From Candidatus Latescibacterota bacterium (GTDB lineage: Bacteria > Latescibacterota > UBA2968 > UBA8231), in the NCBI GenBank assembly GCA_965219385.1, contig CBDCNM010000002.1, positions 1,170,936 through 1,234,935 of the forward strand: a stretch of 64,000 nt of DNA. The letters run 5' to 3'. Shown here one piece after another: positions 12,776 through 49,115 of this stretch (positions are counted from its first letter, which is position 1; each line of letters opens with the position of its first letter). The notes under the pieces are model-generated. The model did no database searches and was not told the origin of the DNA. It saw nothing but the letters and a program-made list of their open reading frames with translations. The position numbers were made by a program, and so were the translations under genes.

Positions 12776-13264
12776 ATGAGGTTTACCATAAGAAGGTTCC
12801 GCTGGAACGAGGACAACGGACAGTGGCTGGCCAACCTCGACGAAGACGGAGACGGGACGCCGGACCGATTCATCTACGGCGAGCTCGAAAGCAGGGTGCT
12901 CAAGTGGACCACCCACTTCGACCTGCTGTTTTCCCCCGACGCCAGTCTGCAGCTGTACATGCAGCCGTTCGTCGCCACCGGCGATTACGGCGCCATCAAG
13001 GAGCTGACCGCCCCGAAATCCTACCGCTTCTCTCCGTACGACGAATACCGGTCCAACCCCGACTTCAGGCGGCGCTCGCTACGCAGCAACCTCGTATTCC
13101 GCTGGGAGTACGCACCCGGGAGCACGCTGTTTCTCGCCTGGGCGCAATCGCGCAGCGCTTTCGACGACACCCCCCGCCTCGGCACCGGCGACCTTGCCGC
13201 CAGTTTCACCGACAACGGAGACAACATCTGGCTTGCAAAGTTCAACCACTGGCTGCGTCTGTGA
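12776..13264 (+). CDS. Hypothetical protein, possibly a 5'-truncated C-terminal fragment of a larger outer-membrane/carbohydrate-binding protein
   Basis: 162 aa with host-like GC content. It ends in an aromatic-rich C-terminus (…NIWLAKFNHWLRL). There is no signal peptide and an implausible N-terminus. It converges on the dynamin island. Confidence 0.35.
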   Translation: MRFTIRRFRWNEDNGQWLANLDEDGDGTPDRFIYGELESRVLKWTTHFDLLFSPDASLQLYMQPFVATGDYGAIKELTAPKSYRFSPYDEYRSNPDFRRRSLRSNLVFRWEYAPGSTLFLAWAQSRSAFDDTPRLGTGDLAASFTDNGDNIWLAKFNHWLRL

Positions 13265-13299: not shown

Positions 13300-15990
13300 T
13301 TAGGCGTTCTGCATAGCTTTGATTTCGTCCACAAAGTCACGTGTGCATATTCCGAACTTCCTCTTTAAGTGCTTGGACTGGTTGGCGTGTCCCTTGTGTT
13401 CATTCCTTCTTTCTGTGACGTCTTGGCGATATTTGCTTACAGCACTGCGTAGATTGGGAGATTCTATTATCAGATCGATACGACTGAGCAATCCAACGAT
13501 ATTTTGCATACGTTTGTGCTCTTTCTCGTGAAACCGTACATATTTGTCGAATAGGTCTTCGATCTCCTCGTCCAGCTTGACCATCGTCTTTGCTCGATCG
13601 ATCATATCTAGGAAATTGTCGAAGGATCGACCGGAGTCGGAGTGGCCATACCATTCTCTGTCGAGTGAGCTGTATAAGCCGATGCCGAAATAGGGAAGTT
13701 TGTTCTTGTCCGCAACCTTTTCCGCATTGCTCAGTACCTCTTGCTGCGCGGTTAGCTTTTTGTCGGCCTTATTCAAGACGATGAATATCGGGGGTTGGGA
13801 CTTACGATATGAAGAAAGCTGAGAATGTTTGCGTTGCTCTCGAAACTCGCAAAGAAAATCGACATCTTCCTGGGGAAGTGTGCCTCTGTCGCAATCGACT
13901 ACCCATATTAGAAAAGGATTAGTCAAGACCTCTTGGAGAGCAATCTTCTTGTCCTCTTCGTCGCTTTTCGCATCATCCGGTTTTGTGTAACCTGGCGTAT
14001 CGATAAAGGCGACTTGTTTACATCTCTCCAAATGTGGTGTGTTGATCACGACTCGTTCTACAATCTGCTTCAGCGGGATACCATAGTCTTTCTCGAACTC
14101 ATGCGTCATCTGCTGAAATGTCGATGTATTGATCGGTGTCTTCCCACCCCCAGAATTGAAAACATTGATTTCCAACTCGTTCTCATCGACATGGGTAATG
14201 AAGGTCGGGATCGAAGTTGTTGGGGTGACCTTTGTGGGCAGGATTTCGTCTCCGATGAGTGCATTGAGAAAACTCGACTTGCCACTACTAAAACTGCCTG
14301 CCACTGTACAGATGTTTCGAGAGGCCAGACGAGGTGCCAATCTCATCTGATTCATGTGCGAGCGGATTATCTCCAAGGCGGCGTATGCTTCGGCTTCCTC
14401 AGGATAAGTGTCGTTGCGGGCAAACTCTCGGTAGTCGTTTTTCAGTAGCTTCTTGAATTCGTTGAAGTGACGCGTATATTCGCCGTTCATGTTATCGCGG
14501 GCAGACATGATTCGCCCGATGAGGTCGAGGGCTTGCTGCGTGCTCTGAGCGTGTTGCTGCACAACTTCCGCAGCTTCGGGCATGGTCTCTTGGATGGTGC
14601 TACGGGCTTGCTCAAGCGTCATGCCGTTCTCAGAATCGCGGGCAGACATGATCTGCCCAGCGCGGTCGATAGCTTGCTGCGTGCTCTGAGCGTGTTGCCG
14701 CACAACTTCCGCAGCTTCGGGCATGGTCTCTTGGATGGTGCTACGGGCTTGCTCAAGCGTCATGCCGTTCTCAGAATCGTGGGCAGACATGATCTGCCCA
14801 ATGAGTTCGAGGGCTTGCTGCGTGCTCTGAGCGTGTTGCTGCACAACTTCCGCAGCTTCGGGCATGGTCTCTTGGATGGTGCTACGGGCTTGCTCAAGTG
14901 TCATGCCGTTCACGTTATCACGGGCAGACATGATCTGCCCGATGAGGTCGATAGCTTGCTGCGTGCTCTGAGCGTGTTGCCGCACAACTTCCGCAGCTTC
15001 GGGCATGGTCTCTTGGATGGTGCTACGGGCTTGCTCAAGTGTCATGCCGTTCACGTTATCACGGGCAGACATGATTCGCCCGATGAGGTCGATAGCTTGC
15101 TGCGTGCTCTGAGCGTGTTGCCGCACAACTTCCGCAGCTTCGGGCATGGATTCTTGGATGACACCACGGGCTTGCTCAAGCGTCATATCCTGGCGCTCAC
15201 TACGCGGCTGTCGACCCGGAGCCAGGCTTTTTGTTATCGCCTCACTAATGGCCCTGACGTATTTCATGATCCCATCAACGAGACCGAGGATCTTCTGAAC
15301 TCTTTGGGTGTGTTCGAGTACAACTTCCGCAGCTTCGGGCATGGCCTCTTGGATGGTGCTACGGGCTTGCTCAAGTGTCATGCCGTTCACGTTATCACGA
15401 GCAGACATGATCTGCCCAGCGCGGTCGATAGCTTGCTGCGTGCTCTGAGCGTGTTGCCGCACAACCTCCGCAGCTTCGGGCATGGCCTCTTGAATGGTGC
15501 TACGGGCTTGCTCAAGTGTCATGCCGTTCACGTTATCACGAGCAGACATGATCTGCCCAGCGCGGTCGATAGCTTGCTGCGTGCTCTGAGCGTGTTGCCG
15601 CACAACCTCTGTGACTTCGGGCATGGCCTCTTGAATAGTGCTACGGGCTTGCTCAAGTGTCATGCCGTTCACGTTATCACGAGCAGACATGATCTGCCCA
15701 GCGCGGTCGATAGCTTGCTGCGTGCTCTGAGCGTGTTGCCGCACAACCTCTGTGACTTCGGGCATGGCCTCTTGAATGGTGCTACGGGCTTGCTCAAGTG
15801 TCATGCCGTTCACGTTATCACGAGCAGACATGATCTGCCCGATGAGGTCGAGGGCTTGCTGCGTGCTCTGAGCGTGTTGCCGCACAACCTCTGTGACTTC
15901 GGGCATGGCCTCTTGAATGGTGCTACGGGCTTGCTCAAGCGTCATACGCTGATGCTTGTCTCTACGCAGTTTGAGCTTCTTCCCACTCAT
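13300..15990 (-). CDS. Dynamin-like large GTPase 1 with an N-terminal 47-aa tandem-repeat array
   Basis: 896 aa. Residues about 16-503 are about 10 tandem 47-aa repeats. These are followed by a dynamin-family GTPase domain: G1 GSFSSGKSSFLNALIG, G3 DTPG, G4 NKAD. A long charged helical C-terminal region follows. Confidence 0.85.
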   Translation of the reverse strand: MSGKKLKLRRDKHQRMTLEQARSTIQEAMPEVTEVVRQHAQSTQQALDLIGQIMSARDNVNGMTLEQARSTIQEAMPEVTEVVRQHAQSTQQAIDRAGQIMSARDNVNGMTLEQARSTIQEAMPEVTEVVRQHAQSTQQAIDRAGQIMSARDNVNGMTLEQARSTIQEAMPEAAEVVRQHAQSTQQAIDRAGQIMSARDNVNGMTLEQARSTIQEAMPEAAEVVLEHTQRVQKILGLVDGIMKYVRAISEAITKSLAPGRQPRSERQDMTLEQARGVIQESMPEAAEVVRQHAQSTQQAIDLIGRIMSARDNVNGMTLEQARSTIQETMPEAAEVVRQHAQSTQQAIDLIGQIMSARDNVNGMTLEQARSTIQETMPEAAEVVQQHAQSTQQALELIGQIMSAHDSENGMTLEQARSTIQETMPEAAEVVRQHAQSTQQAIDRAGQIMSARDSENGMTLEQARSTIQETMPEAAEVVQQHAQSTQQALDLIGRIMSARDNMNGEYTRHFNEFKKLLKNDYREFARNDTYPEEAEAYAALEIIRSHMNQMRLAPRLASRNICTVAGSFSSGKSSFLNALIGDEILPTKVTPTTSIPTFITHVDENELEINVFNSGGGKTPINTSTFQQMTHEFEKDYGIPLKQIVERVVINTPHLERCKQVAFIDTPGYTKPDDAKSDEEDKKIALQEVLTNPFLIWVVDCDRGTLPQEDVDFLCEFREQRKHSQLSSYRKSQPPIFIVLNKADKKLTAQQEVLSNAEKVADKNKLPYFGIGLYSSLDREWYGHSDSGRSFDNFLDMIDRAKTMVKLDEEIEDLFDKYVRFHEKEHKRMQNIVGLLSRIDLIIESPNLRSAVSKYRQDVTERRNEHKGHANQSKHLKRKFGICTRDFVDEIKAMQNA
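14482..15945 (-). repeat. 141-bp coding tandem repeat, about 10.4 copies (47-aa unit MTLEQARSTIQEAMPEVTEVVRQHAQSTQQAIDRAGQIMSARDNVNG)
   Basis: The amino-acid repeats are near-identical, with substitutions EV/EA, EAM/ETM and DRAG/DLIG. There are four copies, then one diverged 65-aa copy, then five copies. The plus-strand ORF 14467-16092 in the track is the antisense image of this array. Confidence 0.9.
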
Positions 15991-16027
15991 GGCTGGTTTC
16001 CTTTCCGTCGTCGTTTCACGAATGATC

Positions 16028-18202
16028 CTAATCTATTTCGGATCGGTGTCGCTTTAGCTTGTCCATGGCCAGCTTGTAGCGTTGCAGCTTGAATCCCTGC
16101 GACTTCAAATCCTCTTCTATGCGACGATGATAATCTTTTAACTCTTGGACTGCCGCCGGAACCAGTGCCTCCTTGGCTTTGGCGGTGACCTTATCGACCT
16201 GTTCCTTGGCTTGGTCGATCCACTCGGTACTCTGTTTGCTCAACGAATGCACCGTCTTTCTGGCGTTCTCCTGTCCCTTTATTGCAGACTCCTCATTGTT
16301 GGGCTCATAGCCGCGAAATGTAGAATCAATCTTCTCGTTTAGTTCCTTGAGTTCTTCGCCCCCTTGTTTAGCGACCTTATCAATTGCATAGCGGACCAAG
16401 CGCTGGATCCGAGTGGGTTTAATCGCATAGGCAGTCTCGTTGTCGATCACGTTTGCGAGCAACTTATTCATCGTATGCTTGGCGCTTTTCTTGAAATCAA
16501 AATTGAATATGGTCTCGGAGACATCTTGGATTTTTTTGTTGAGTTCACCTTGCATGACGAGAATAGCAGTTTCAATACCAGCGGTATTCAATATCTGCTC
16601 TTCGTAAGGTTTCTTACCGCCCCCCCATATCTTCCAAGCAATCCATGGAAGAGATCCTTCCTTTTGTCTCATTTTTGTTTCTACCCTGATTCCATAATCG
16701 ATAATCTCCCTCACTTCCTTGCCTTCCTCGTGGATAGTATCTCTCAGCTTGTTAATCTCCTTTTTTTGCTTTTCGATCAATTCTTCCCATGCATCAACGA
16801 CGTTCTCTTGGATATTTTCCACCATCTCGTCGACATCTTCCTGCTGCTGTTTAATCTCCGCAAGGTCCGTTCCGCGTAGATGCTCACGACTTTCTTCGAA
16901 ATTCTCGATCAGTTCGTTCAGTTCCTCTAAGGTACCATCTCGTTTCTCCCGGAGAAAATCTTGCATCTTATCCTGCATGATCTGATCCTTGTCCCTATGG
17001 ATAGCGGCAAGGCATTCGTCAACTTTCTCTCTATTTCCTAGGTCAGCGAGTATGCTAAGAGTATTTTCGTCAATCGCCTTTTCCCCTTCTGCTAGTTTAT
17101 CAATCCAATCAGGATATCTTTTGTGGAGATTGGCCAAGATAGCTCGCTCTTCCTCGTTCCACTGCGTGACTGGTTTAGTGGCCAAGATTGCGCATATTGC
17201 GGATACAAAGACTATATCGTCTTCCTCGATGGCCATAGAACCGTCCTCGCTGCGATCCTGCTTGAGACCAATCACATCTTTAGCTTGGTCCACCAAGTCT
17301 TCCTCGGTGGAATCCTTGGCCTTCTGCAGATCACCTGCATAATCCTTCGACACATCGATCAAGGCGCTGTCGAACTTGCTACCAATCAACAAACGCCGGC
17401 TAATGCCCTCGGCAGGCACCTGATTGTGAAAGAAGTCCGCGTCCGTACTGTCCATGAACTGTGAGGCTGAGCTCAGCAATAGCACGGCATCGCACTGCTT
17501 CAAGAGGTTATTCGTTTCTCGACACCGGGACGCGATGGGATCGTTGATACCAGGAGTATCGACGATATCGATATCTGGAAGACCTTGACTGCATCGAATC
17601 GTTACGCTCTTGACCAGCGGCGTCATCTTCCCCTCGGAACCAACGAGCTGACGGAGTCTTCCATTCAGTTCGTCAATGGAGGCCGGCAGGACTTCCGTCT
17701 TGCCGAGATGGGGGTCTACCTTGAGGCGGCGTTTCTCGACCATTTCGACCAGTTCATGTGACGCTCTCATAACCTCTGCTGGCTCGCTGGTGGCAGCCTT
17801 TTGTTTTTGGTATTCGTTGGCATAGCGCTTAATTTCCTGCCAATCCTTGTGGTTGTAGTATTCGACTTCGATTTCGTCCCGATCGCTCTTTACGATGTGG
17901 GTCAGTGAGGCCGTCATCGGCGTGGCGGCCTTCGGTAGTACTTCTTGCCCATCAAAGAGCAATAGGTTCAGGAGCGAGGATTTGCCCGACTTGATTTGAC
18001 CTACGATGCCGAGCCGTAGTAGGCGGTTCTCCTCCAGCAAGTCGCTGGAGTATGACTTCAGGTCCTGTTCGATCTCTCGTATGTTCCGTACCTGTGCATT
18101 GTCTTGCTCAGCGATGTCTTCATACTCAATGAAGGTCTGCGACAACGAGGACAAGCTTTTTACTAACTGGTCGCAGTCAGGAGTCAGGTAGTTGTTGCCC
18201 AT
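16028..18202 (-). CDS. Dynamin-like large GTPase 2
   Basis: 724 aa. G1 GQIKSGKSSLLNLL, G3 DTPG, G4-like SKFD. Long Glu/Lys-rich predicted coiled-coil C-terminal half. The start is 38 bp downstream of the preceding gene's stop. Confidence 0.85.
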   Translation of the reverse strand: MGNNYLTPDCDQLVKSLSSLSQTFIEYEDIAEQDNAQVRNIREIEQDLKSYSSDLLEENRLLRLGIVGQIKSGKSSLLNLLLFDGQEVLPKAATPMTASLTHIVKSDRDEIEVEYYNHKDWQEIKRYANEYQKQKAATSEPAEVMRASHELVEMVEKRRLKVDPHLGKTEVLPASIDELNGRLRQLVGSEGKMTPLVKSVTIRCSQGLPDIDIVDTPGINDPIASRCRETNNLLKQCDAVLLLSSASQFMDSTDADFFHNQVPAEGISRRLLIGSKFDSALIDVSKDYAGDLQKAKDSTEEDLVDQAKDVIGLKQDRSEDGSMAIEEDDIVFVSAICAILATKPVTQWNEEERAILANLHKRYPDWIDKLAEGEKAIDENTLSILADLGNREKVDECLAAIHRDKDQIMQDKMQDFLREKRDGTLEELNELIENFEESREHLRGTDLAEIKQQQEDVDEMVENIQENVVDAWEELIEKQKKEINKLRDTIHEEGKEVREIIDYGIRVETKMRQKEGSLPWIAWKIWGGGKKPYEEQILNTAGIETAILVMQGELNKKIQDVSETIFNFDFKKSAKHTMNKLLANVIDNETAYAIKPTRIQRLVRYAIDKVAKQGGEELKELNEKIDSTFRGYEPNNEESAIKGQENARKTVHSLSKQSTEWIDQAKEQVDKVTAKAKEALVPAAVQELKDYHRRIEEDLKSQGFKLQRYKLAMDKLKRHRSEID

Positions 18203-18204
18203 GT

Positions 18205-20010
18205 TTAATTATCCTCCAGAGGTTTTTTTGCTTCAATTAGTCGATTAATGGCATCTCGTAACTGCGCTTTGCGCTGCTCCAATTCATGTCGGTCTTCTTC
18301 GATCTCCTGGCGGCTCTGGTTGATGTCGGCCTGAATATGCTCGATCTCGCCCTGCACTTGTTCCCTTAGTTGGGAGAACATTTTCTGAGTCATCTTGTCG
18401 TAGTCCTCAGTGATCTTCGCTCGGAGCTCTGACGCGATCTTGGGGGCGATGACATTTTCAATTTGTGCCCTTAGCTGCTGCAACTGCTCCTGTTTCCTCT
18501 GTTCCTGGATATTTTTCGAGACCCAGTCGGCTATGTAAGGAAATAAGATAATCACGACCTCCAACCATGGTGCCACCACGGAGGTCGAGGCGGCTAGAAC
18601 GCCGCTGATCGCTAGGTAGGTGTTCTTCGTCCTTCCGCGGGAAAGGTTATTCGCAGCATCTTCAAACGTCTTCGCAATCTTGGGTGCCATGTCGTTCCAC
18701 TTGCGGGCCATGTCCTCGATATCCTCGGAACTCAAGAATCCACCGCTGTCAGCGAATTGCTCATACTGTGCGCCGATTTCGTCGATGTCGGGCTGATAAC
18801 GTTCGACGATCTCCCGAAGCGTCGCGGACCGCTCCTCGTCAACGAGGTTATTCAGGGTCTGACGCACAAGTTCATTGATTTCCTGATTGAAGGCCTGTTG
18901 GCCTCCAGCTTGAAAGGTTTGAACGAGTGATGGCGCATTGTCGCGGATGGCGCTCCGAACACCTCGCAATATCCGATCTACCGCGCGTTGGGAATAACGT
19001 TCTCGGATCTCCCGCTCGTCTTGGCGAAGTTTTTCCTCCAGCGCTTGCTTTTTGTCCTCTAGTTGGTCAATCACTTTATCGTTTTCGGCGGAGGAGACGT
19101 TCAGCGCGGTGTAGCGGGTGTGTAGGCTCTGTATCGCCTCATCGAATAGGACAACAATTTTGCGTCGCCAGAAGCCGCGCAAGGCGTGGTCGAAGTCGAT
19201 GGACTCTAGAATCTGTCGAAACGCCGCCATGTCTTGCTCGTGCGCCGAGACCGACCGCACGACTGCGGACTTCCCGAACGCGCTGTTCACCTGTTCAGCG
19301 ATATAGTCAACGACTGCATGGGCGTCCGCCTTCTTCTTGTCGATCTTGTTGATCAACACGGCAAACTCTATTTCCTGACTGAGAAACTCGCGTAGTTGGC
19401 GAATTTCGCTCTCGCGGAGGGCCCCGTGCTCGGCGTCGACTACCAGAATGAAATAGCTGCCGAGCGGCAGATAGCGTTGAATGGCGGCGTTGTGAGTCAT
19501 CAGACCGGAGTCCAGCCCAGGCATATCGACAAGTACTTTCCGCTCATTATTGGTGAGAGCTGAGGCGTGGAGCATCGCTTTCGCGTACCGTGCGCTCGAC
19601 TTCTCCTCGCTCAGCGTTTCTTTTTCGAAGCGCTGAAAACTTGCGATGTCGATTCGTTCCAGAAACCGGTCATTTTCTCCGTAGATCTCGATTCGCTCCT
19701 CTTCAGCGGAAGAAGCGGAGTGAATCTCGGTAGCCAAGGCCGTCTGCGGCACAATGTCGGTGGGCAGCTTCTTGCTCTCCTCGCGTTCGAGGTATACGTT
19801 TACCAACGAGGTCTTGCCCGCGTTGAATGATCCCACGAGTGGAATCAACACCGTGAACTGCGCGATGCTGCTGCGGAATTCTTCCGCACGTCCACTTTCC
19901 GACTCATTGAGATTGATCTCCTTTGCAATCTCTCTGAATTGGTCCAGAGCGGTCAGATACTCGTCTTGAGTAGTACTCATAGTCGGCCTCCATCCATTTT
20001 GGCTCGTCAT
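18205..20010 (-). CDS. Dynamin-like large GTPase 3 (with a predicted hydrophobic paddle)
   Basis: 601 aa. G1 GSFNAGKTSLVNVYL, G3 DMPG, G4 NKID. A hydrophobic hairpin (YLAISGVLAASTSVVAPWLEVVIILFPYIADWV) lies near the C-terminal third. Its stop (TAA at 18205-18207) abuts the next gene's start at 18202. It is the first gene of the operon, with the RBS ggaggccgactATG. Confidence 0.85.
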   Translation of the reverse strand: MTSQNGWRPTMSTTQDEYLTALDQFREIAKEINLNESESGRAEEFRSSIAQFTVLIPLVGSFNAGKTSLVNVYLEREESKKLPTDIVPQTALATEIHSASSAEEERIEIYGENDRFLERIDIASFQRFEKETLSEEKSSARYAKAMLHASALTNNERKVLVDMPGLDSGLMTHNAAIQRYLPLGSYFILVVDAEHGALRESEIRQLREFLSQEIEFAVLINKIDKKKADAHAVVDYIAEQVNSAFGKSAVVRSVSAHEQDMAAFRQILESIDFDHALRGFWRRKIVVLFDEAIQSLHTRYTALNVSSAENDKVIDQLEDKKQALEEKLRQDEREIRERYSQRAVDRILRGVRSAIRDNAPSLVQTFQAGGQQAFNQEINELVRQTLNNLVDEERSATLREIVERYQPDIDEIGAQYEQFADSGGFLSSEDIEDMARKWNDMAPKIAKTFEDAANNLSRGRTKNTYLAISGVLAASTSVVAPWLEVVIILFPYIADWVSKNIQEQRKQEQLQQLRAQIENVIAPKIASELRAKITEDYDKMTQKMFSQLREQVQGEIEHIQADINQSRQEIEEDRHELEQRKAQLRDAINRLIEAKKPLEDN

Positions 20011-20533
20011 AGGGTGTAAGGTTGTGTGTTGCTAATATGCAAAATTCGTGCCACTTTCTCGCAATTAGGCCCAAATTATTGTAGATAAAGGAGTTAGAAT
20101 ACCATTCGGCAACGACTGGTTTTCTCTCGAAGTGTTGCAAAATGACTCTGTCGCAAGCCGCCGGGCGCCGCTTTTGCGTTTTTGACGAGGGCTATAAATG
20201 GATGTCTACGAAGGAGTTATGAAAAAAATCTGAGGGCAGGACTGAGGCCGTGTAGCAATTTGAAACGAAAGGCGCATTTTGCGACACAAGTTCTCCCGCC
20301 GTTGCCTGGGGGGCGACCGAGGAAAGCGGCAGCGTCACGCGCATGGTCGTCCCCTTTCCGGTGCCCTCGCTCAAGGGCTGAATGCGCCCCTGGTAACGGG
20401 AGGGTTGGAAGCAGCGCGGTCACAATCCGCGCGTGGTTCAGCCCCGCCTCCAGGCTCACTTCCATCCGGTCGAGGGCTGCGCGCACGTGGCGCACGCAGT
20501 TTTCGCAGCTCATGCCATCAATGGCTACCTCGA

Positions 20534-21361
20534 TCAAAACCTGATCCCCTTGAATTTCTTCATGTGCTCGGTGATGGCCACCTCGACCGGCAGCCGCTCC
20601 ATGCTCGAAGCCCCGTAAAACCCGTTGACCCCACGGGTATTCCGCAGCACGTACTCGGCGTCCTCGGGCTCGGAAATCGGCCCGCCGTGGCACAGCACGA
20701 TCACCTCCGGATTCACCCCCCGGGACGCATCGCAGATGGCCTGCACATGGGCGGGCGCCTCCTCCAGGGTCATGGCCGTGGCAGCGCCGATGGCGCCCTT
20801 GGTGGTGAGCCCCATATGCGCCACCACGATATCGGCGCCGGCATTCGTCATCTGCTCCCCTTCTTCCGGGGTGAAGGCATAGGGCGTGGTCAGCAGATCC
20901 ATCTGGTGCGCCGTGCGGATCATCTCCACCTCCAGCCCATAGCCCATGCCGGTCTCCTCCAAGTTCTGGCGGATCAAGCCGTCGAACAGGCCCACGGTGG
21001 GAAAGTTCTGCACCCCGGAAAAGCCGATGGCCTCGACCTCCTTCAGGAAGATCTCCATCTGGCGGAACGGGTCCGTGCCGCAGACCCCGGCCAGCACCGG
21101 GGTGTCCTCGACGATGGTCAACACCTCGCCGGCCATGTCCATGACAATGGCATTGGCATCCCCGTAGGGCATCACCCCGGCCAGGGAGCCCCGCCCGGCC
21201 ATGCGGAAGCGCCCGGAGTTGTAGATGACGATCAAATCCACCCCGCCGACCTCCTCGAACTTGGCGCTGATGCCGGTGCCGGCGCCGGCGCCGATGATGG
21301 GGATATTGGCCTCGATATGCTGGCGCAGGCGCGCCATTACTTCCGCTCTTTTAAGTCCCAT
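20534..21361 (-). CDS. TIM-barrel (phosphoenolpyruvate hydrolase-like) protein, partner of UPF0261 (Tm-1-like C-terminal module)
   Basis: 275 aa. It is adjacent to and co-oriented with the UPF0261 gene. This split arrangement of the plant Tm-1-like fusion is common in bacteria. Confidence 0.7.
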
Positions 21362-21368
21362 GTAGCCC

Positions 21369-22595
21369 TCACTTTTTCTGGGCGATCAACTCCAGCATGA
21401 GTTCCACCGCCCGGGCGGAAAATTCCGGATCGTTGATGTTGTGGTCCGACTCGTGCACCGCTATGCCCTCGGCGAGGTTTTCCCGGATGGCCTGGAACAT
21501 GGCCTGGTCGGCCTGGCGGTCGCGGAAGAGCTGGCCCTCGCCGTCCAGGATGGATACCCCCCTGAGCGGCAGGAGAAAGGCCACCGGCCCGCGGGCGGCA
21601 TTGGCCTTTGCGGCGAAGATCCGCCCCATTTCCTGGTTTTCCTCGATGTTGGTGCGCATCAGGGTCACCGAAGGATTCCACTCGTAAAACAGCCGGTCGG
21701 CCTCCCGGTACTTTTGGGGTATGGTGTCCGGGCCGCCGAAGTTGACCATGTCCACGCACCCGGGCACGATCAGGTGCGGCAGGCCCATCGCACCCGCCGC
21801 ACTGAGGCGCTCGGGCCCGGCGTCGAAGGCCCCGCCGCAGAGGGTATCGGCCCACTCCGTGGTGGTGATGTCCAGGACCGCGTCCACCAGTCCTTCCCTG
21901 ACCAGGGACTCCATGGTGCGCCCCCCGGTGCCCGTGGCGTGAAAGACCAGCACCTCGTACCCCCTTTCGGAGAGGCTGGCCACACAGGCATCGACACACT
22001 CGGTGGTATTGCCGAACATCGAGGCCACGATCACTGGTTTGTCCTCGGCTGATGCCGGCGGTTCCTTTTCCACCATGCCGCAGATGGCCCCGGCCGCGCG
22101 CGCGAAGATGAGGCGCGAAACCCGGTTGATGCCGGCCACATCCACGATGGAGGGAATCAAGGTAATATCCTTGGTGCCCACATAGGGCCAGGTATCTCCC
22201 GAGGCCACGGTGGAGACGCAGACCTTGGGCAGCCCCACGGGCAGGGCCCGCATCCCGGCCGTGACCACGGTGCTGCCGCCCGACCCCCCCATGCCGACGA
22301 TGCCGTCGAATCGGCCTTCACCGTAGAGCCGCTGCACCACCACGGGCGCGCCCTTGCTCATGACCTTCATGGCCTCACCGCGGTCCTGCCCGGCGCGCAA
22401 CTCCTCCAGGTCGCCTCCGCCGGCGCGGGTGACTTCGTCTGCTTCGATATCCACCGGGAACAATTCGCTCGAGCCCAGGACCCCGGTGTTCAAGGTCAAA
22501 ACCGCGTGGCCGCGCTCCAGGATCTGCTCGCGCAGGAAAGCGTATTCCGGGCCCTTGGTGTCAAAGGCGCCGATCACCAGAATGGTCTTGCTCAT
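21369..22595 (-). CDS. UPF0261-family protein (Tm-1-like N-terminal module)
   Basis: The sequence [25 protein letters not shown]… is the typical N-terminus of UPF0261. The likely start is ATG 22595, preceded by aaggaggg. Confidence 0.75.
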
Positions 22596-22708
22596 ACTAC
22601 CCTCCTTTGGTTGGTCCGGACAGGGAAAGATAAAAAAGGCTACCTGCACCAAAACCCTCTACTGAGCCTTCATTCAGGGTCCGACAGATGAACAAGCCAT
22701 CGCTTCAA

Positions 22709-24970
22709 TCAATTTACCCGAAATCCCTTCAACCGCAAAGCATTGCCGATCACCGACACCGAGCTGAAGGCCATGGCCACACTGGCCACCATGGGACTCA
22801 ACAATGGACCGCCCCAAACGTAGAACACCCCCGCGGCCAGAGGAATCCCGGCCGCGTTGTAGAAGAAGGCCCAGAACAGATTCTGGCGGATGGTGCGCAT
22901 CACCGCGCGGCTCAGTTCGAGCGCCCGGGACACATCCTCCAGACGGTTGTGCATCAGCACCAGGTCCGCCGATTCCACCGCCACATCCGTCCCCGCGGCA
23001 ATGGCGATCCCCACCTGGGCCCGGGCCAGGGCCGGCGCGTCGTTGATCCCGTCTCCGACCATGCCCACCCGCCGCCCTTCCTCCTGCAGACGGTGCACCA
23101 CCGCGGCCTTGTCCTGGGGCAGGACCTCGGCCACCACCCGCTCGATCCCCACCTGGCGCGCCACGGCCTCCGCGGTCCGGCGGTTGTCCCCGGTGAGCAT
23201 GACCACCTCCAGGCCCCTCTCTCTCAGGCGCGCAATATCCGCGGCACTGGACGCCCGCGCCCTATCGGCCACCCCGATCAGCCCGGCCACCCGACCCTCC
23301 ACCGCGACCCAGATCAGGGTCTTGCCCGCCCCGGCCAGCTCCTCTGCCCGCCCCTCCTGTTCCCAGACCCCCGTGGCGCCTACCTCCTCCATCAGGGCGC
23401 GATTGCCCACCACGATCCGCCTGCCATCCACTCGGGCCCGCGCCCCCCGCCCGGGCACGGCCGCAAAGTCCTGCACCGCCAGCAACTCCAGCCCCCGGAC
23501 CCCAGCACACTCCACCACCGCCGCTCCGAGGGGATGTTCGGAGCCCTGCTCCAGAGAGGCGGCCCAGCGCAGCCACTCGTCCTCTGGCCGGCCGTCCACC
23601 CCGATCAGATCGGTCACCACCGGCCGCCCCTCGGTGATGGTGCCGGTCTTGTCCAGCACCACGGTGTCGAGCCGCTGACTCTCCTCCAGGGCCTCGGGAC
23701 TCTTCACCAGGATGCCCATCTGCGCCCCCTGCCCCGTGCCCACCATGATGGCCGCCGGCGTGGCCAGCCCCAGGCTGCACGGGCAGGCGATGATCAGCAC
23801 CGCCACGAAGATCTCGAGGGCAAAGGCCGGTTCTGCCCCCGCCAGCAGCCAGGCCGCCCCGGCCCCCAGCCCGATCAGCAGCACCACCGGCACAAAGTAC
23901 CCGGAGATGGTATCGGCCAGCCGCGCGATCGGGGCCCTGCCCCGCTGGGCATCCTCCACCAGCCGGATGATCTGGGCCAGCGCCGCGTCCCGGCCCACCC
24001 GGCCCACCCGCAACTCCAGCAACCCGTGCGCATTCACACTCCCGCCGATCACCCCATCCCCCGGCCCTTTGGCCACGGGCAAAGACTCGCCCGTGAGCAT
24101 GGACTCGTCCACCGCCGATTGCCCCTCCACCACCTGGCCGTCCGCCGGTATCCTTTCCCCCGGATGCACCCGCAGCACATCTCCCACCTCGATCTGTTCG
24201 ACCGGGATGCTCCGCTCCACGCCATCCGCCAGGAGCGTGGCGGTCCGGGGCTGCAGGTCCATCAAGGCCTGCATGGATTCGCCCGCCCGGCTTTTGCACA
24301 GGGCTTCGAGGTAGCGTCCCAGAAGCATCAGGGTAAGGATGGTGGAGACCGCCGGGAAATAAGAAAAAAAAGAATCCGTCCGGCCCGGCTCCACGCTCAG
24401 CAATCCCTGAAGACTGAAAGTAAAAGCCGTCCCGGTCCCGATGGAAATCAGCGAGAACATATTGGGAGCCCCCCGCACCAGGGAGCGCAAGCCGTCCACG
24501 TAGACCCGCCGGCCGATCCACATCACCGGCACCACCAGCACCAGGTGCAGCAGCCCCACTTTCAGGGGATGGTGTGCAAACACAAGCGCCTCGGGTAGCG
24601 GCAACCCGACCATGCTCCCCATCTCGATGACGAACAGCGGCAGGAAAAACCCCAGCGCTGCCACCAGCTGCTTTTTCTGCGCCTCGATTTCCCGGAGTTT
24701 GCGCGCCCGTTGTTCGGCCAGCGGATCTTCGGACTCCACGACCTGATAGCCCGCATCCACGACCGCCTGGCGGAGATCCCGCCGGCGCACCTGTCCCGGA
24801 TCGAACTCGACCAGGGCTTCTTCGGTGGCCAGATTGACCGCGGCCCTGTCGACCCCCTCCAGCTCCTGGAGCCGGTGCTCGACGCGGCGGGCGCACGCCG
24901 CGCAACTCATCCCGCCCACCCCCAGGGTGGTGCTGCGAAGCCCGCCCCCTTCTTTTTTAGAGACTTCCAT
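22709..24970 (-). CDS. copA: Copper-translocating P-type ATPase (P1B-type)
   Basis: N-terminal HMA motif [12 protein letters not shown]. Transmembrane CPC motif [18 protein letters not shown] phosphorylation motif. [10 protein letters not shown] hinge. The likely start is ATG 24970 ([10 protein letters not shown]), preceded by aaggaag. Confidence 0.9.
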
Positions 24971-42322: not shown

Positions 42323-45016
42323 ATGGCTGCCCGCATCGTCCTGGTTGACGGCATGGCCGTTGCCTATCGCGCCTACTTTGCCTTTATCAACAACCCCCTG
42401 GTCAATTCCAAAGGCGAAAACACCAGCGCGGTCTTCGGCTTTGCCAATACCCTGCTCAAGGTATTCAGAGAAAACAACCCCGAATACCTGGCCATCCTCT
42501 TCGACACCAGCGCCCCGACCTTTCGGCACGAGAAACACTCCGAGTACAAGGCCACGCGCGAGAGAATGCCCGAAGACATGAGCGGCCAGTTGCCGCGCAT
42601 CCGCCAGCTAGCCGCGGCCATGCGGATCCCTCTCCTGGAACAGGAAGGCTACGAAGCCGACGATTTGATCGGCACCCTGGCCCTCAAGGCCGCGGCCCGG
42701 GGGTTGGAGGTGACCATCCTCACCGGCGACAAGGACTTCATGCAGCTGGTGCGGCCCGGCATACAGCTTTTGAATCCCCACCGCTCCGCCGAAGACGACG
42801 AGACGATAGGCGTCGAGCAGGTAAGGGAGAAATTCGGCATTGAGCCCGACCAGATCATCGAGGTCCTCAGCCTCATGGGCGACACCTCGGATAATGTCCC
42901 CGGCGTGCCGGGGGTGGGACCCAAGACCGCCACCAAACTCATCCAGGAACACGGCAGCCTCGAAGTCGTGCTGGCGGCGGCGCCCCGGATCAAACAGAAC
43001 AAACTGCGCGAGAATTTAATCCAGTTCGCCGACCAGGCCCGGCTCTCCAAAGAACTGGTCACCATCCACGTCGACAGCCCCATCGAACTCGACCTGGAGG
43101 CTATGGCCGTGGCCGGCTTTGACCAGCCCGAGTTGGCCGCTCTCTTCAAAGAGCTGGAGTTCAGTCGCCTCCTGGAGCAGCTCGACCTTTCCGCTCCAGG
43201 CCCGGAAGCAGAAAACATCCCCACCCACTACAAACGGGTCCAGGATCTGGAACAAGCTGAAAAGGTAGTGGCGGAAATGGCCTCCAGTCAAGGCTTTGCC
43301 ATCGACCTCGAAACCACCGCCCTCGATCCTCTCAGCGCCGCAATCGTCGGCATCTCGCTTAGCCGTGCAAGCGGTCGGGCCTTTTACCTGCCCACGGCGC
43401 ATGCAGAGGGCGGAAACCTGGACCTGGAGCAGGTCCTGCACCACCTCAAACCCCTGCTCGAAGACCAGGGGATTTGCAAGTACGGACAGAACATCAAATA
43501 CGATACCAGCATCCTGATACGCCATGGCATCGACCCGCAGGGTTTCGCCTTCGATACCATGATCGCCGACTATTTGCTCGATCCGACCGAGCGCCAGCAC
43601 AACCTGGACGCCCTGGCCCGGCACCACCTCGACTACACCATGACCTCCATCAGCGAGTTGATCGGCAAGGGCAAGGATCAGATCGGCTTTGCCCAGGTGG
43701 ACCAGGAAAAGGCCTGTCACTACGCCTGCGAGGACGCGGATATAACCCTGCGCCTGGTGGAGGTGCTGCGGCTCCAGTTGCAGGAAAAGGAAATGGTCGA
43801 CCTCTTCGAGCAGGTGGAAGTGCCCCTGGCAGGGGTGCTGCGCGATACGGAACTGCACGGGGTGGCCATCGACACTGAATTCCTGCAGGCGTTCTCCGCC
43901 TCCCTGGAGACCGATCTCGAAGCCCTCAAAGGTCGGATCCACGAACTGGCCGGCGAGGAGTTCAACATCAACTCGACCCAGCAACTGGCCCATATCCTCT
44001 TTGACAAAATCGGCCTCAAACCCCGCAAGAAAACCAAGACCGGATACTCCACGGATGTGGGCGTGCTGGAAGAGCTGGCCCAGGAACACCCCCTGCCCGA
44101 ACACCTCCTCGAATACCGCGAACTCACCAAACTCAAATCGACCTACATCGATGCCCTGCCGGCCCTGGTGCATCCGGCCACCGGACGCGTCCACGCCTCC
44201 TTCAACCAGACCGTCACCGCCACCGGCCGCCTCTCCGTCTCCGATCCCAACCTGCAGAATATCCCCATCCGCACTCCCCTTGGACGCGAGATTCGCAAGG
44301 CCTTCATCGCCGGCCGCGAGGACGCCTGCATCCTCTCGGCCGACTACTCCCAGATTGAACTGCGCCTCCTGGCCCACTTCTCCGGCGACCAGGCCCTCGC
44401 CGACGCCTTCCACGCCCACGAGGACATCCACACCCGCACCGCCTCCCTGATCTTCAACCTGATGCCGGAGTTCATCACCCCGGATCTGAGGGCCCAGGCC
44501 AAGACCGTCAACTTCGGGGTCATCTACGGCCAGAGCCCCTTTGGTCTGGCGCGCCAGTTGGGCATCCCCCTGGGCCGCGCCCGGGAATTCATTGCCAATT
44601 ACTTTGCAATCTACCACCAGGTCAGGGAATTCATCGACCAGACCATTGCCCGGGCCCGTCAGGACGGCTATGTCCGCACCTTGCTGGGCCGTAGGCGCTA
44701 CCTGCCCGAAATCGACAGCGACAATACCCGCCGCCGCGAATTCGCCGAGCGCACCGCCATCAACACCCCGATCCAGGGCAGCCAGGCCGACATGATCAAG
44801 GTGGCCATGGTCAACATCCACCGCAAGCTCCGCGAGCGCAACCTGGACGCCAGCATGATCCTGCAGGTACACGACGAACTGGTCTTCGAGGTGGGCCAGA
44901 AGGACCTGGATGAAGCAGAGGAACTGGTCCGGACCGAAATGGTACAGGCCCTACAGTTGAACGTGCCCGTAGTGGTGGCAAGCGGCAGCGGCCGCACCTG
45001 GTTCGAGGCGCACTGA
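42323..45016 (+). CDS. polA: DNA polymerase I
   Basis: 897 aa. 5'-3' exonuclease N-terminus. Klenow-like polymerase motifs: RRxAKxxNFGxxYG, and DYSQIELR in motif A. Confidence 0.97.
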   Translation: MAARIVLVDGMAVAYRAYFAFINNPLVNSKGENTSAVFGFANTLLKVFRENNPEYLAILFDTSAPTFRHEKHSEYKATRERMPEDMSGQLPRIRQLAAAMRIPLLEQEGYEADDLIGTLALKAAARGLEVTILTGDKDFMQLVRPGIQLLNPHRSAEDDETIGVEQVREKFGIEPDQIIEVLSLMGDTSDNVPGVPGVGPKTATKLIQEHGSLEVVLAAAPRIKQNKLRENLIQFADQARLSKELVTIHVDSPIELDLEAMAVAGFDQPELAALFKELEFSRLLEQLDLSAPGPEAENIPTHYKRVQDLEQAEKVVAEMASSQGFAIDLETTALDPLSAAIVGISLSRASGRAFYLPTAHAEGGNLDLEQVLHHLKPLLEDQGICKYGQNIKYDTSILIRHGIDPQGFAFDTMIADYLLDPTERQHNLDALARHHLDYTMTSISELIGKGKDQIGFAQVDQEKACHYACEDADITLRLVEVLRLQLQEKEMVDLFEQVEVPLAGVLRDTELHGVAIDTEFLQAFSASLETDLEALKGRIHELAGEEFNINSTQQLAHILFDKIGLKPRKKTKTGYSTDVGVLEELAQEHPLPEHLLEYRELTKLKSTYIDALPALVHPATGRVHASFNQTVTATGRLSVSDPNLQNIPIRTPLGREIRKAFIAGREDACILSADYSQIELRLLAHFSGDQALADAFHAHEDIHTRTASLIFNLMPEFITPDLRAQAKTVNFGVIYGQSPFGLARQLGIPLGRAREFIANYFAIYHQVREFIDQTIARARQDGYVRTLLGRRRYLPEIDSDNTRRREFAERTAINTPIQGSQADMIKVAMVNIHRKLRERNLDASMILQVHDELVFEVGQKDLDEAEELVRTEMVQALQLNVPVVVASGSGRTWFEAH

Positions 45017-45017
45017 A

Positions 45018-47231
45018 CTACTCCACCCTTACTTCGTAAGGTCCAGCTCCCCGCAACACAAGGACGGTCCACTCCTCGGTGCTTGCGATTTCCTGGACGA
45101 ATGAATTGGGGTGGAACTTTTCGTTGCGCCAGACCGTTTCGCCGTTGAGATTGAGGATTGGAAAGCGCTTGCCCAGGCGCGGCACCCACAGGTGGGTCTC
45201 GCCCTCCTCGGTGCGCACCACCCGCATAGAAAAGGAAACCCTGGAATCCCACTCTACTTCCACCGCTCCTCTCGGAGTAAGGATCCGCCCTCTGGCCCGC
45301 GACAAAGCGGCCGATTGCGGCCGGATTTCCACCACCTCATAGCCCGGGGCGCCCGGGCGGATACCCAGCACCTGGGAGCCCAGGTAGTACTCGGGTCCGG
45401 GTGGCATGGCCGGCGCCTGGGAGGGATTCTTTTCAGCCCATGTCCGGCCCTTCCGAGCCAAGAGTCGGCCCCATTGTTGCCGCAGGAAATCCAGTGCCCT
45501 TTTCTGGAGCCCGGTGCGCCACAATCCACCCGCCACAAAGAAAGCCTCCAGCAAATCCTCTACCCGGCGCAGGTGCGCCCCCCGGAGCTGGTGGACCATT
45601 TGCTCTTGCTGGCCTTCATCCGCCAGACCAAAGTAAAGCACCAGGCCATTGCTCCACTGGCTCAGCGGCTGGGTTGCGGCGGGCCGATCGGAAAACAGGC
45701 CCTGTTGCGGAACCCAGGCCGTCTGCAGAGCCTGGCGCACCTGGTGTTGCGTCCGCTCGTACAGGGCCCCCTGCTCGTTCTCACCCGCACCGCTACACAG
45801 TCGCCCCGCAGCGTCCAGAGCCCCGGCGTAGAGGGCATTCAGAGCCGTGCTACACCAGGCGCCGACGGCTGGCAATAACCCCTCTGCAGTCCGGTGTTCC
45901 GCGCAGGCATCCAGCACCTGGAGGGCGCCCGGCAACACCTCGGCGACTGCTGCATCCTGGCCGTGATAGCCCTGAAAGGCCTCCACAAAAAGCACATAAG
46001 CCAGGGCCTGCGGCACGGCCGCACCCCCGGAACGAGGTGGGGGATTGGCGGCCAGGGTGGCGGCGGCGGTCCGACCGTCGCCGCTCAGGTAATAATCGTC
46101 CAGCGCCAGCGCATAGGCTCTCAACCAGTCGAAGGGTTGTTGCGGCCCAGCAAACCAGTAGACCTCCTGCCGGCATGCCTCCAGGGTGCGCTCCCCTGTC
46201 TTCCAGATCTTCTCCAGGGATTCGGTGGCGGCAAAGGAGCCGCCCTCCTCTACCGCGACCCTGCGCTCCAGCAGGGAGACGCAGTCCACTTCCAGGGCCT
46301 CGCCGCACTGGCTCAGCCGCACCACCAGATACCGGCAGGATTTCATCTGGATCCCGCTCCACTCCTGCAAGCCGGCGGCGCACACATAGCGCAGGCCCGA
46401 CTCGATCTCGCCCCAGGTGCGGGCAAACCCCATGTCCAAAACGCCGGCCCCACCCCCGCGCAGCCGCAAACGGGGGAAACCGGTTACCACTCGGCCGAAG
46501 TCCAGGACCAGGTACACCGCCCGTTGTGGATTTCGGGTCTGCACCAGGGTCCGGGTCTTGCCAGGCTGCAGCAGGGCTTCGCGATGGACGCATTTGCACT
46601 GTTCCATGCGCCTGGGCTCGGCTTCGAAGCGCAATGGCCCGGTGGCCTCGATCTCGCCGAATCTCACCACCTCCCGGGCCCAGACTTCCTCCTCAATCGC
46701 CGGACGCGGCGACCAGACCAAAGGCGCGGCGATCCGGGCTTTGCTCGCCACGGCAGCTTCAAACCCCTCTTCCTGGAGCCTGCCCTCCCTCCAGGCAGTG
46801 GAAGCCGCTGAATAGACTTCGGCGAGGGGCTCGGTTTCCCGGACCTGCCAGGCGTCGGCCCGCAGAACCTGCCAGGAATCTCCGCTGCAGAGCACCATTT
46901 CGCTATCATCCGCGCAGAAGATCTGGCCCTCTGCCCTGAACCAGGAGGGCTCTCCGGGATCGGGATGGGCCCGGGCCAGAACAAGGAGGACATTCTCTCC
47001 CGGTTGCACCAGGTCGCTGATAGTGCAGGTATTCCACACCGGTACCTGGGTGAGCGCCGGCCCCAGTCCCCGCCCCACCCTCCGGCCGTTGAGGTAGATT
47101 TCGAAAGGGCCGTTACAGGCGCACTGCATCCACGCCTTGCGGCTGGCACTGGAGAGGATAAAAGACTTTCTCAGGTACACCCAAGGCGAGGTGGAAGAAA
47201 CTACTGGATGCCAGATCGGCTCGGATTTCAT
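45018..47231 (-). CDS. Six-hairpin glycoside-hydrolase-like protein (alpha-L-rhamnosidase/GH78-like, tentative)
   Basis: 737 aa. The overall layout resembles bacterial alpha-L-rhamnosidase: N-terminal beta-sandwich, central (alpha/alpha)6-like region, C-terminal beta domain. No diagnostic catalytic motif was confidently recognised. Confidence 0.35.
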   Translation of the reverse strand: MKSEPIWHPVVSSTSPWVYLRKSFILSSASRKAWMQCACNGPFEIYLNGRRVGRGLGPALTQVPVWNTCTISDLVQPGENVLLVLARAHPDPGEPSWFRAEGQIFCADDSEMVLCSGDSWQVLRADAWQVRETEPLAEVYSAASTAWREGRLQEEGFEAAVASKARIAAPLVWSPRPAIEEEVWAREVVRFGEIEATGPLRFEAEPRRMEQCKCVHREALLQPGKTRTLVQTRNPQRAVYLVLDFGRVVTGFPRLRLRGGGAGVLDMGFARTWGEIESGLRYVCAAGLQEWSGIQMKSCRYLVVRLSQCGEALEVDCVSLLERRVAVEEGGSFAATESLEKIWKTGERTLEACRQEVYWFAGPQQPFDWLRAYALALDDYYLSGDGRTAAATLAANPPPRSGGAAVPQALAYVLFVEAFQGYHGQDAAVAEVLPGALQVLDACAEHRTAEGLLPAVGAWCSTALNALYAGALDAAGRLCSGAGENEQGALYERTQHQVRQALQTAWVPQQGLFSDRPAATQPLSQWSNGLVLYFGLADEGQQEQMVHQLRGAHLRRVEDLLEAFFVAGGLWRTGLQKRALDFLRQQWGRLLARKGRTWAEKNPSQAPAMPPGPEYYLGSQVLGIRPGAPGYEVVEIRPQSAALSRARGRILTPRGAVEVEWDSRVSFSMRVVRTEEGETHLWVPRLGKRFPILNLNGETVWRNEKFHPNSFVQEIASTEEWTVLVLRGAGPYEVRVE

Positions 47232-47467: not shown

Positions 47468-47548
47468 CTGGGGCTGGATACCGCCCAGAGAAGGACTTCG
47501 CGCCTTGGTCCCGCTCCCCCTATCCGCCAGGGGTATGGAGCTTGGATC

Positions 47549-48991: not shown

Positions 48992-49115
48992 TGTTTTCCT
49001 CTCCTTCTTGTACCTGATTGAATGCCCCAAAGGGCGAAAATACAAACCGTCGATTCGTTCGGCGCCTATAAAAAAGACGAAAGGTTGTGAAAAGGGTTCC
49101 CCCGCCTTTTCAGAA

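Follow-up and report, generated by a model that had tools for sequence, protein, structure and literature searches.

To our knowledge, bacterial dynamins are known as single proteins, pairs or fusions, and Eleos is the one validated immune form among them. The locus described here consists of three consecutive minus-strand genes for dynamin-like GTPases (g1, g2 and g3, hereafter the trio). It lies in a stretch of 64,000 nucleotides from a Candidatus Latescibacterota bacterium (GenBank assembly GCA_965219385.1, contig CBDCNM010000002.1, positions 1,170,936 to 1,234,935 of the forward strand), which is called the window below. The trio had been pointed out in an earlier note made from the letters of the window alone. 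According to the analysis presented here, the most likely reading of the trio is a new relative, in three parts, of the antiphage systems already known to be built on dynamins.

Eleos is an antiphage system of two genes, LeoA and LeoBC (Millman et al. 2022). It makes Bacillus subtilis resistant to two jumbo phages, AR9 and PBS1, loses its effect unless both P-loops are intact, and adjoins defence genes in 60% of cases. The leoCBA operon of enterotoxigenic Escherichia coli (ETEC) encodes two dynamins, since LeoC and LeoB are halves of one G domain: LeoC carries the P-loop, switch 1 and a transmembrane anchor, and LeoB continues from switch 2 onward; deletions of LeoA and LeoB halve the vesicle-associated cargo (Michie et al. 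2014). LeoABC, which the earlier note had mentioned, thus has two dynamins, one of them split, and not three. Campylobacter jejuni Cj-DLP1 and Cj-DLP2 (DLP, dynamin-like protein; PDB 5owv/5oxf) are active only together and form a 2:2 tetramer; Cj-DLP1 has an N-terminal assembly domain of 119 amino acids (aa), and the third gene of the Cj operon encodes a repeat protein (HcpA-like). B. subtilis DynA is reported to delay phage lysis (PMC8844932).

The three open reading frames (ORFs) of 601, 724 and 896 aa, to which the earlier note had ascribed a dynamin-type GTPase core, indeed carry one. The Pfam Dynamin_N profile, with a gathering score of 27 bits, scores 55.2 bits on g1, 73.6 bits on g2 and 79.3 bits on g3 (residues 563–713), and all the motifs quoted in the note were located in the translations. 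The G1 motifs are GSFNAGKT at residue 60 of g1, GQIKSGKS at residue 68 of g2 and GSFSSGKS at residue 565 of g3; the G3 motifs are DMPG (residue 162), DTPG (215) and DTPG (664), and the G4 motifs are NKID (221), SKFD (275) and NKAD (740), in the same order. Each protein combines a Dynamin_N score above the gathering score with G1 GxxxxGK[ST], G3 DxxG and G4 [NTS][KQ]xD, the combination by which dynamin membership was judged. The GTP-binding residues are invariant across the aligned g1 and g3 orthologues, and the neck (bundle-signalling) helices packed on the G domain are present by fold in the g1 and g3 models. Profile and fold searches place all three G domains in the dynamin/BDLP/mitofusin class. 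Matches to MMR_HSR1 (27–30 bits) are secondary to Dynamin_N, and a GTPase of the Era, EngA (Der) or YihA type was rejected: the NCBIfam Der, Era and YsxC models give 19–24 bits versus cut-offs of 124–307. Because the GTP-binding residues are invariant and the small-GTPase scores lie far below the cut-offs, the G domains are neither of the Era/EngA type nor truncated. The non-dynamin family, which the earlier note had named as a finding that would speak against it, did not appear.

The trio is found far beyond the window. One genome per species was scanned with a g1 profile, which gave 46 loci. In a tblastn search with the window proteins, g1-, g2- and g3-like genes were adjacent in most of the loci with enough flanking sequence, and these dozens of loci belong to at least 12 phyla. 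The hosts include Latescibacterota, Pseudomonadales, Spirochaetia, Rhodobacteraceae, Desulfobacterota and Campylobacterota (Helicobacter cetorum, Campylobacteraceae), as well as Brachyspira, Bacillota (Paenibacillus, Evansella, Oscillospiraceae), Bacteroidales, Victivallales, Ignavibacteriales and Wallbacteria. Within the trio, the genes are arranged as g1-g2-g3, g1-g3-g2, g2-g1-g3 or g3-g2-g1. In an all-against-all comparison, the best match from another locus fell in the protein's own class in every case (123 of 123 proteins), with median bit scores of 125–195 within classes versus 38–43 between them. In addition, g1, g2 and g3 of the window are not detectable to one another by BLASTP. Taken together, these two observations indicate that the trio consists of three old orthogroups travelling together. 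The g1 family comprises 250 clusters (50% identity) at E <= 1e-30 in an exhaustive search. Some Oscillospiraceae have only g1-like and g2-like genes with conserved flanks; these loci were treated as a separate paired family and left out of the tally of genomic contexts given below. On one Spirochaetia chromosome (OZ244929.1), two complete trios, L008 and L009, are located far apart.

The g1 protein is predicted to be a full-length dynamin similar to BDLP and IniA, with a G domain, neck, trunk and paddle. Its AlphaFold2 (AF2) model has a mean predicted local distance difference test score (pLDDT) of 74 and a predicted template modelling score (pTM) of 0.68. The best fold matches of the model are Nostoc BDLP (2j69, E 1.1e-15, TMq 0.58) and IniA (6j72, TMq 0.56), followed by Cj-DLP2/1, mitofusins and SynDLP, with LeoA in 35th place. 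The level of identity in the structural alignments to BDLP and IniA is 13–14%, and no dynamin was retrieved from the PDB by g1, whether as a single sequence or as a 22-sequence profile; only the fold comparison placed g1. The G1, G3 and G4 motifs are invariant in the 22 g1 orthologues. The hydrophobic paddle-like hairpin noticed earlier in g1 was recovered with a 19-residue Kyte–Doolittle maximum of 2.03 (Table 1). It is the sole stretch above 1.4 outside the G domain in the three proteins, and no strongly hydrophobic segment was found outside the G domain in g2 or g3 on this scale. The g1 orthologues keep VAPWLEVVIILLP in the hairpin. Long stalk helices are seen in the g1 model, and the stalk tip, with pLDDT below 50, coincides with the hydrophobic hairpin, a predicted position that fits a membrane paddle. 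The g1 orthologues of Wallbacteria, Evansella (L036) and a Desulfobacteraceae metagenome-assembled genome (MAG) carry an N-terminal patatin phospholipase (91–99 bits versus a cut-off of 27.7).

The g2 protein is a long dynamin-like protein, the G domain of which is closest to that of Campylobacter Cj-DLP1. In a phmmer search of the PDB, g2 residues 19–309 matched 5owv_A (Cj-DLP1) with E 8.6e-13, and the match begins at residue 117 of the Cj-DLP1 chain, past the assembly domain. The G4 motif SKFD had been called atypical; judging from the alignment, it is a family signature, because the variant S[KQ][FYL]D occurs in nearly all of the 43 g2 orthologues (DTPG in 42 of 43). Residues 512–534 form a loop rich in Trp/Phe and Lys/Arg, and this character is kept among orthologues. 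The length of g2 would be plausible for a trunk-bearing dynamin.

The g3 protein begins with a basic leader of 15 aa, followed by ten tandem units (residues 16–503), the GTPase and about 90 aa of helices. The earlier note had the order reversed, with a giant repeat stalk after the GTPase; the repeats are N-terminal of the GTPase. Nine units have 47 aa (141 nt) and one divergent unit has 65 aa, with the consensus MTLEQARSTIQEAMPEAAEVVRQHAQSTQQAIDLIGQIMSARDNVNG; Tandem Repeats Finder (TRF) detected two 141-nt arrays with 93–97% matches in g3. Distant g3 orthologues have one copy of the 47-aa unit, and close ones have 1, 2, 4, about 6 or 10. No Pfam family fits the units. Sub-threshold Pfam matches of g3 (potato_inhibit, HMG_WDHD1, MT0933_antitox, PASTA and others) were rejected, since each contains no significant stretch and is a sum of ten weak repeat matches. 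The AF2 model of the C-terminal 397 aa (pLDDT 85.6, pTM 0.82) best matches the engineered mini-mitofusin MFN1 GTPase+HD1 (5yew, E 6.5e-13, TM 0.52–0.55). In the model, the G domain is preceded by two helices and followed by two more; these make up a neck bundle, and neither a trunk nor a paddle is seen. A profile search of the PDB with g3 gave Cj-DLP2 (3.9e-15) and then BDLP (3.5e-9). Thus, g3 is predicted to be a mini-dynamin in which a GTPase and neck bundle are joined to a lineage-variable domain. The structure comparison suggested in the earlier note has, at the level of models, led from g1 to BDLP/IniA and from g3 to a mini-mitofusin.

The accessory domain of g3 differs by lineage: it is a TPR domain in L024, an ankyrin domain in L023, a YdcK/LbH beta-solenoid in L007 and S1-like in L036 (by NCBIfam only), and some lineages have none. 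Where it is absent (g3 of 405–420 aa), a homologous fourth gene of 830–860 aa directly follows, as on E. coli plasmids and in L021 and L026 (Table 1). The module that g3 carries as a fusion at other loci may here be provided in trans by this gene. RefSeq names its product 'CFI-box-CTERM domain-containing protein', and a weak Sel1 repeat match can be noted; a literature search on the CFI-box found nothing relevant. The Spirochaetia locus L013 has two g3-like genes (14108–15298 and 18444–19619) near one g1-g2 pair.

When the trio is compared with Eleos and LeoABC, a common plan is apparent: an operon of dynamin-like GTPases only, horizontally mobile and often beside defence genes, for which hetero-association of G domains would, by analogy, be expected to be needed. 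Eleos has two dynamins, whereas the trio has three complete G domains from three orthogroups, and no counterpart of g3, a predicted trunk-less mini-dynamin with a variable domain, has been described for it. As for ETEC LeoABC, the difference is that every trio ORF has its own G1, G3 and G4, and a split G domain is not the state of the family. It is quite improbable that the trio is an Eleos or LeoABC locus under another annotation. LeoABC likewise has three genes, and the PADLOC LeoBC model matches g1 (6e-11) and g2 (7.4e-11); however, these matches are weak (~40 bits) and partial. The PADLOC LeoA model has no match among the window proteins and weak matches only on distant orthologues, and the NCBIfam LeoA/HP0731 model reaches 16.3 bits on g1 and 18.7–20.7 bits on orthologues versus a cut-off of 325. 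LeoA (4aur) was not found by sequence or profile searches with the trio proteins. Its low rank by fold for g1, the complete G1–G4 set of each protein as opposed to the split LeoC/LeoB, the two-gene composition of Eleos and the three orthogroups mutually undetectable by BLASTP also argue against identity.

Cj-DLP1 and Cj-DLP2 are the closest solved relatives by sequence (Cj-DLP1 for g2 and, by profile, Cj-DLP2 for g3), and they are also encoded by adjacent operon genes; the repeat-protein third gene of the Cj operon parallels the repeat modules on or after g3. In contrast, g2 lacks the assembly domain of Cj-DLP1, Cj-DLP2 is full-length while g3 is predicted to have no trunk, and nothing in the Cj system corresponds to g1. 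The best fold matches of g1, Nostoc BDLP1 and Mycobacterium IniA, share with it the G domain, neck, trunk and membrane-inserting tip; however, they are single dynamins, whereas g1 always stands beside two other dynamin orthogroups. No sequence similarity of g1 to BDLP1 or IniA is detectable, even with a profile. Mini-MFN1 has the same domain content that g3 has naturally, but it is an artificial truncation, and the natural g3 has an added variable domain. B. subtilis DynA is an example of several dynamin units acting as a single machine, and it reportedly can affect how a phage infection ends (PMC8844932); it is a two-headed fusion (~1,190 aa), while the trio consists of separate genes, and the NCBIfam DynA model NF052648 gives at best 61.5 bits (on g3) versus a cut-off of 1600. 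Because both profile scores and architecture differ, the trio is not a member of the Eleos/LeoABC, DynA or Cj-DLP1/2 type. By analogy with these systems, it plausibly works through G-domain hetero-association on the membrane. The E. coli dynamin-RdcB-phospholipase islands (PMC12922286) were considered and set aside as a different system. The earlier note knew of no characterised three-dynamin operon; our literature search, from which subscription journals were mostly out of reach, likewise found no publication on a bacterial three-dynamin operon or on dynamin-patatin defence.

Judging by sequence comparison, the trio is a horizontally mobile module. The block has a GC content of 51.6% (g1 53.2%, g2 48.9%, g3 52.6%) versus 62.7% and 65.1% in the adjacent flanks, and GC at third codon positions (GC3) is 0.59–0.65 in the trio versus 0.80–0.88 in the neighbouring genes; the low-GC block described earlier is thus real, although the values given for it (48% against 64%) were not. 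None of 15 proteins from the window flanks has a homologue at any other trio locus (46 related loci). The closest relative, L050, shows 85/72/78% amino-acid identity, yet it is flanked by different housekeeping genes. Trios are carried by the Calditerrivibrio plasmid pCALNI01, beside IS200/IS605, by Pseudomonas aeruginosa megaplasmids, between IS256 and IS30 (IS, insertion sequence), and by IncF plasmids of E. coli and E. albertii. In the plasmid copies, the three classes are again represented, by genes annotated as 'dynamin family protein' that follow one another directly. The E. coli IncF trio and its fourth gene span 44300–51888 of NZ_CP148279.1, and the P. aeruginosa WYL gene and trio span 16111–23209 of NZ_CP133095.1. 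Among 5,426 complete E. coli genomes, the trio was found in five, every time on a plasmid, and one copy is split by IS3. The GC contrast, the unshared flanks, the plasmids and the IS elements agree with the three-component, horizontally acquired module proposed in the earlier note, and what was found is the opposite of core genes with conserved synteny. In the window itself, no tRNA genes were detected, no convincing direct or inverted repeats border the block, and its immediate flanks contain neither an integrase nor a transposase. A known plasmid as the source of the window was rejected, since megablast of 9–25 kb against plasmids matched only P-type ATPase fragments.

Two public assemblies of near-identical strains keep the synteny of the window. 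One strain (99.98% identical) differs from the window by four single-nucleotide polymorphisms (SNPs) in 20.8 kb, two of them within g2. One of the two (window position 17492, TGC to TGA) changes Cys237 to a stop, which is the same in three independent assemblies and splits g2 after G3 into 236 and 485 aa. The other strain shows three SNPs and a 33-nt duplication of the g2 start, which replaces the g1 stop and the Shine-Dalgarno (SD) site (18203–18217); this duplication might be an assembly artefact. It can be noted that the near-identical strains (L001/L063 and L064) differ from the window mainly inside the trio. In L054, g2 is split by an IS element. The trio is dispensable, as indicated by the nonsense codon and the IS interruptions, and its loss is tolerated within the strain's population.

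Gene neighbourhoods were analyzed in 14 annotated contexts, i.e., gene calls with Pfam labels together with three annotated plasmid records, within 10 kb of the trio. L052 has DarT with an ADP-ribosylglycohydrolase, a UvrD helicase, DruA and IS110; N6/N4 methyltransferases are present in L051 and L052, AAA_15/21 ATPases in L053 and L061, AAA_16-TPR STAND-like proteins in L054 and L055, and toxin-antitoxin pairs of the PIN, MazE, BrnT and RelB types in L059–L061. The P. aeruginosa plasmid encodes an EH-signature protein and a DEAD/DEAH helicase, as in Zorya ZorC/ZorD. When the three closest ORFs to the left and right were pooled for 19 trio loci and for L020, a locus with g1- and g2-like genes only, the neighbours included restriction enzymes of types I and II, methylases, AriA-like ATPases and WYL regulators. 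Defence-type neighbours are frequent at the related loci, and none was found at the window. These neighbours, the swappable g3 domains and the lipase fusions are patterns typical of defence systems, from which a defence role is inferred; the antiphage role that the earlier note had offered as a possibility keeps that conditional standing.

In at least three lineages, the trio is immediately preceded by a gene for a WYL/WCX regulator; this is seen at two Spirochaetia loci as well as on the plasmid of P. aeruginosa. In four other genomes, a WYL gene is followed by a near-identical cassette encoding E1 (ThiF), JAB, an E2-like protein and a protein of about 130 aa, and then by the trio (Table 1). 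This cassette may be a neighbouring module similar to Bil or CBASS Cap2/3, or it may be functionally coupled to the trio. The ThiF-type E1 has 280 aa, JAB 223–336 aa, the E2-like protein 163–201 aa and the last protein 129–138 aa; the last one has an internal duplication, with the motif DRVPAT[QR]MAREGFF occurring twice. The termini of the cassette proteins are nearly identical between loci, and g1 there is only 52–65% identical. In L062, a second dynamin-like pair (824+ aa and 740 aa), followed by separate patatin and YjcZ-family genes, occupies positions 1–5876 and closely precedes the WYL/E1/JAB cassette and the trio. Within this island, dynamins are thus associated with a lipase once more.

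Two of the loci have SPFH/Band_7 proteins in their flanks, and the upstream flank of L051 consists of housekeeping genes, including an ftsA-ftsZ cluster, with the trio about 4 kb downstream of ftsZ. Such neighbours bear on the main rival explanation, general membrane maintenance or repair, in which the three dynamins would tether and fuse or reseal the damaged membrane under envelope stress (antibiotics, pore formers, osmotic damage), as has been proposed for B. subtilis DynA, Cj-DLP1/2 and IniA/IniC. The trio would then be an accessory stress-tolerance trait. The nearest relatives, BDLP, IniA and Cj-DLP1/2, have been linked to membrane tethering, repair or drug tolerance, and the g1 paddle, the metabolic flanks in the window, the housekeeping genes in L050 and upstream of the L051 trio and the SPFH/Band_7 proteins are consistent with repair. 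However, the patchy, plasmid-borne, IS-associated distribution with repeated inactivation, the recurrent WYL, restriction-modification, toxin-antitoxin and E1/JAB neighbours, and the exchangeable TPR, ankyrin and beta-solenoid modules and lipase fusions, which are typical of conflict systems, make repair rather unlikely as the role of the trio. The ftsZ linkage might also suggest division or compartment remodelling, as for Streptomyces DynA/DynB, and the effect of LeoA and LeoB deletions on vesicle cargo an aid to vesicle release or virulence secretion, as for LeoABC in ETEC. We consider roles of this kind highly improbable: only a single locus shows linkage to division genes, and it is not a conserved feature, neither signal peptides nor secretion genes were found, the hosts are mostly environmental MAGs of unrelated phyla, and loss of the module leaves the strain within its population.

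With modest confidence, we lean towards the trio being one GTP-driven membrane machine with g3 as its adaptor or sensor, distantly related to Eleos and, by analogy, most probably antiphage or anti-invader in its role. The swappable repeat domain of g3 (here ten 47-aa helical units) would bind a trigger or a scaffold, and nucleotide-dependent pairing of G domains, as in Cj-DLP1/2 and mitofusins, would couple g3 to g1 and g2. The latter two would assemble at the membrane via the g1 paddle and the aromatic/basic loop of g2. This assembly would remodel, tether or seal the membrane or, with a patatin-fused g1, degrade it, and phage propagation would be limited as the outcome.

Several points weigh against an antiphage machine. 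The tally of defence- or mobile-element-type neighbours (about 10 of the 14 contexts) is a raw count, uncorrected for background. The trio proteins are not recognised as a known defence system by any PADLOC or NCBIfam model, so the PADLOC check proposed in the earlier note was negative; PADLOC matches to JetC, ZorA and LmuB were rejected as coiled-coil noise. A g1 search of a phage collection and of IMG/VR viral contigs found none. In the window and in L050, the trio is surrounded by ordinary genes of metabolism, and neither defence genes nor an integrase, a tRNA or direct repeats at the borders were found. Architecture is the only basis on which the three proteins are taken to interact physically and g3 to be a sensor. 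Finally, bacterial dynamins also serve cytokinesis, vesicle release and drug tolerance. A broader version of the antiphage reading can be put forward tentatively and with some doubt, namely that the trio is the first example of a widespread, so far unrecognised three-component dynamin immune system. In it, a mini-dynamin would detect infection with exchangeable repeat or sensor modules and, via GTPase-domain pairing, license two membrane-active dynamins (one of them patatin-fused in some lineages) to remodel or destroy the membrane, often under WYL control and sometimes coupled to an E1-E2-JAB conjugation cassette.

The layout of the locus is given in Table 1. The start of g1 is most likely Met11, because GGAGG lies 6 nt upstream of it and public gene calls use Met11; one of these, with 591 aa, agrees with g1 at every residue (100% identity). 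The earlier note had begun the 601-aa ORF at the ATG at 20010 and placed one leader with a ribosome-binding site, common to the trio, at 20011–20030. No SD site was found upstream of this ATG (20011–20030 is GCATATTAGCAACACACAACCTTACACCCT), and g2 and g3 each have an SD-like site of their own, GGAGG and AAGGAA, respectively. The gaps, given earlier as 1 and 38 bp, are 2 nt from the g1 stop to the g2 start and 37 nt from g2 to g3. Translational coupling of g1 and g2 is plausible. The upstream same-strand gene (PEP-hydrolase-like) terminates at 20534. The region between it and g1 has no match to the sigma-70 consensus; a promoter/terminator scan gave fewer sites than in shuffled sequence and none in this region. 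Unlike several related loci, the window locus has neither a WYL regulator nor an E1/JAB cassette.

Table 1. Coordinates of the trio, its parts and associated genes at related loci.
Feature	Location	Strand	Details
g1 (gene 1)	Window 18205..19980	minus	591 aa from Met11; ORF open back to 20010 (601 aa)
g2 (gene 2)	Window 16028..18202	minus	724 aa
g3 (gene 3)	Window 13300..15990	minus	896 aa
Shine-Dalgarno GGAGG of g1	Window 19987..19991	minus	6 nt 5' of the Met11 ATG (19980); read from sequence
GGAGG for g2	Window 18213..18217	minus	10 nt 5' of the g2 ATG, within the final g1 codons; read from sequence
g1 hydrophobic hairpin	Window 18520..18618	minus	AISGVLAASTSVVAPWLEVVIILFPYIADWV; residues 465–497 (601-aa numbering)
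g3 repeat array, ten tandem units	Window 14482..15945	minus	TRF and unit dissection
g3 predicted mini-dynamin part	Window 13303..14481	minus	G domain and four-helix neck bundle; AF2 model
Presumed operon promoter region	Window 19992..20533	minus	Non-coding, ~540 bp, upstream of g1; gene layout
WYL/E1/JAB/E2 cassette	L054 5983–9911	same as trio	
WYL/E1/JAB/E2 cassette	L059 5527–9085	same as trio	
WYL/E1/JAB/E2 cassette	L061 5986–9839	same as trio	
WYL/E1/JAB/E2 cassette	L062 6546–9874	same as trio	
Fourth gene after minimal g3	L058 11992–14481		E. coli plasmid NZ_CP148279.1
Fourth gene after minimal g3	L021 15205–17727		
Fourth gene after minimal g3	L026 15104–17680		

Two other parts of the window can be noted. 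A plus-strand ORF of 162 aa (12776–13264) runs towards the end of g3. Its match to Pfam DUF5916 is confined to the C-terminal fifth of the profile (positions 433–548 of 572), and it is either a gene fragment or a stand-alone domain. Positions 2635–9634 have an uneven, lower GC content (49–58% in several 1-kb bins) and contain about nine ORFs with no Pfam match (e.g., 5029–6117, 7484–8128, 8340–9098 and 9281–9634), including three co-directional ORFs in 2635–4402. Possibly, these ORFs form another block of genes that are accessory or of foreign origin.

The conserved trio is a natural dissection of dynamin targeting and switching, with one member apparently reduced to a GTPase and neck that carries swappable recognition-type domains. 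Targeting and switching are a question for the eukaryotic Mx proteins, GBPs and mitofusins as well. Since IncF plasmids of E. coli and megaplasmids of P. aeruginosa carry the trio, the hypothesis is directly testable in model hosts, and the patatin-fused and E1/E2/JAB-linked variants suggest a specific effector and regulatory logic.

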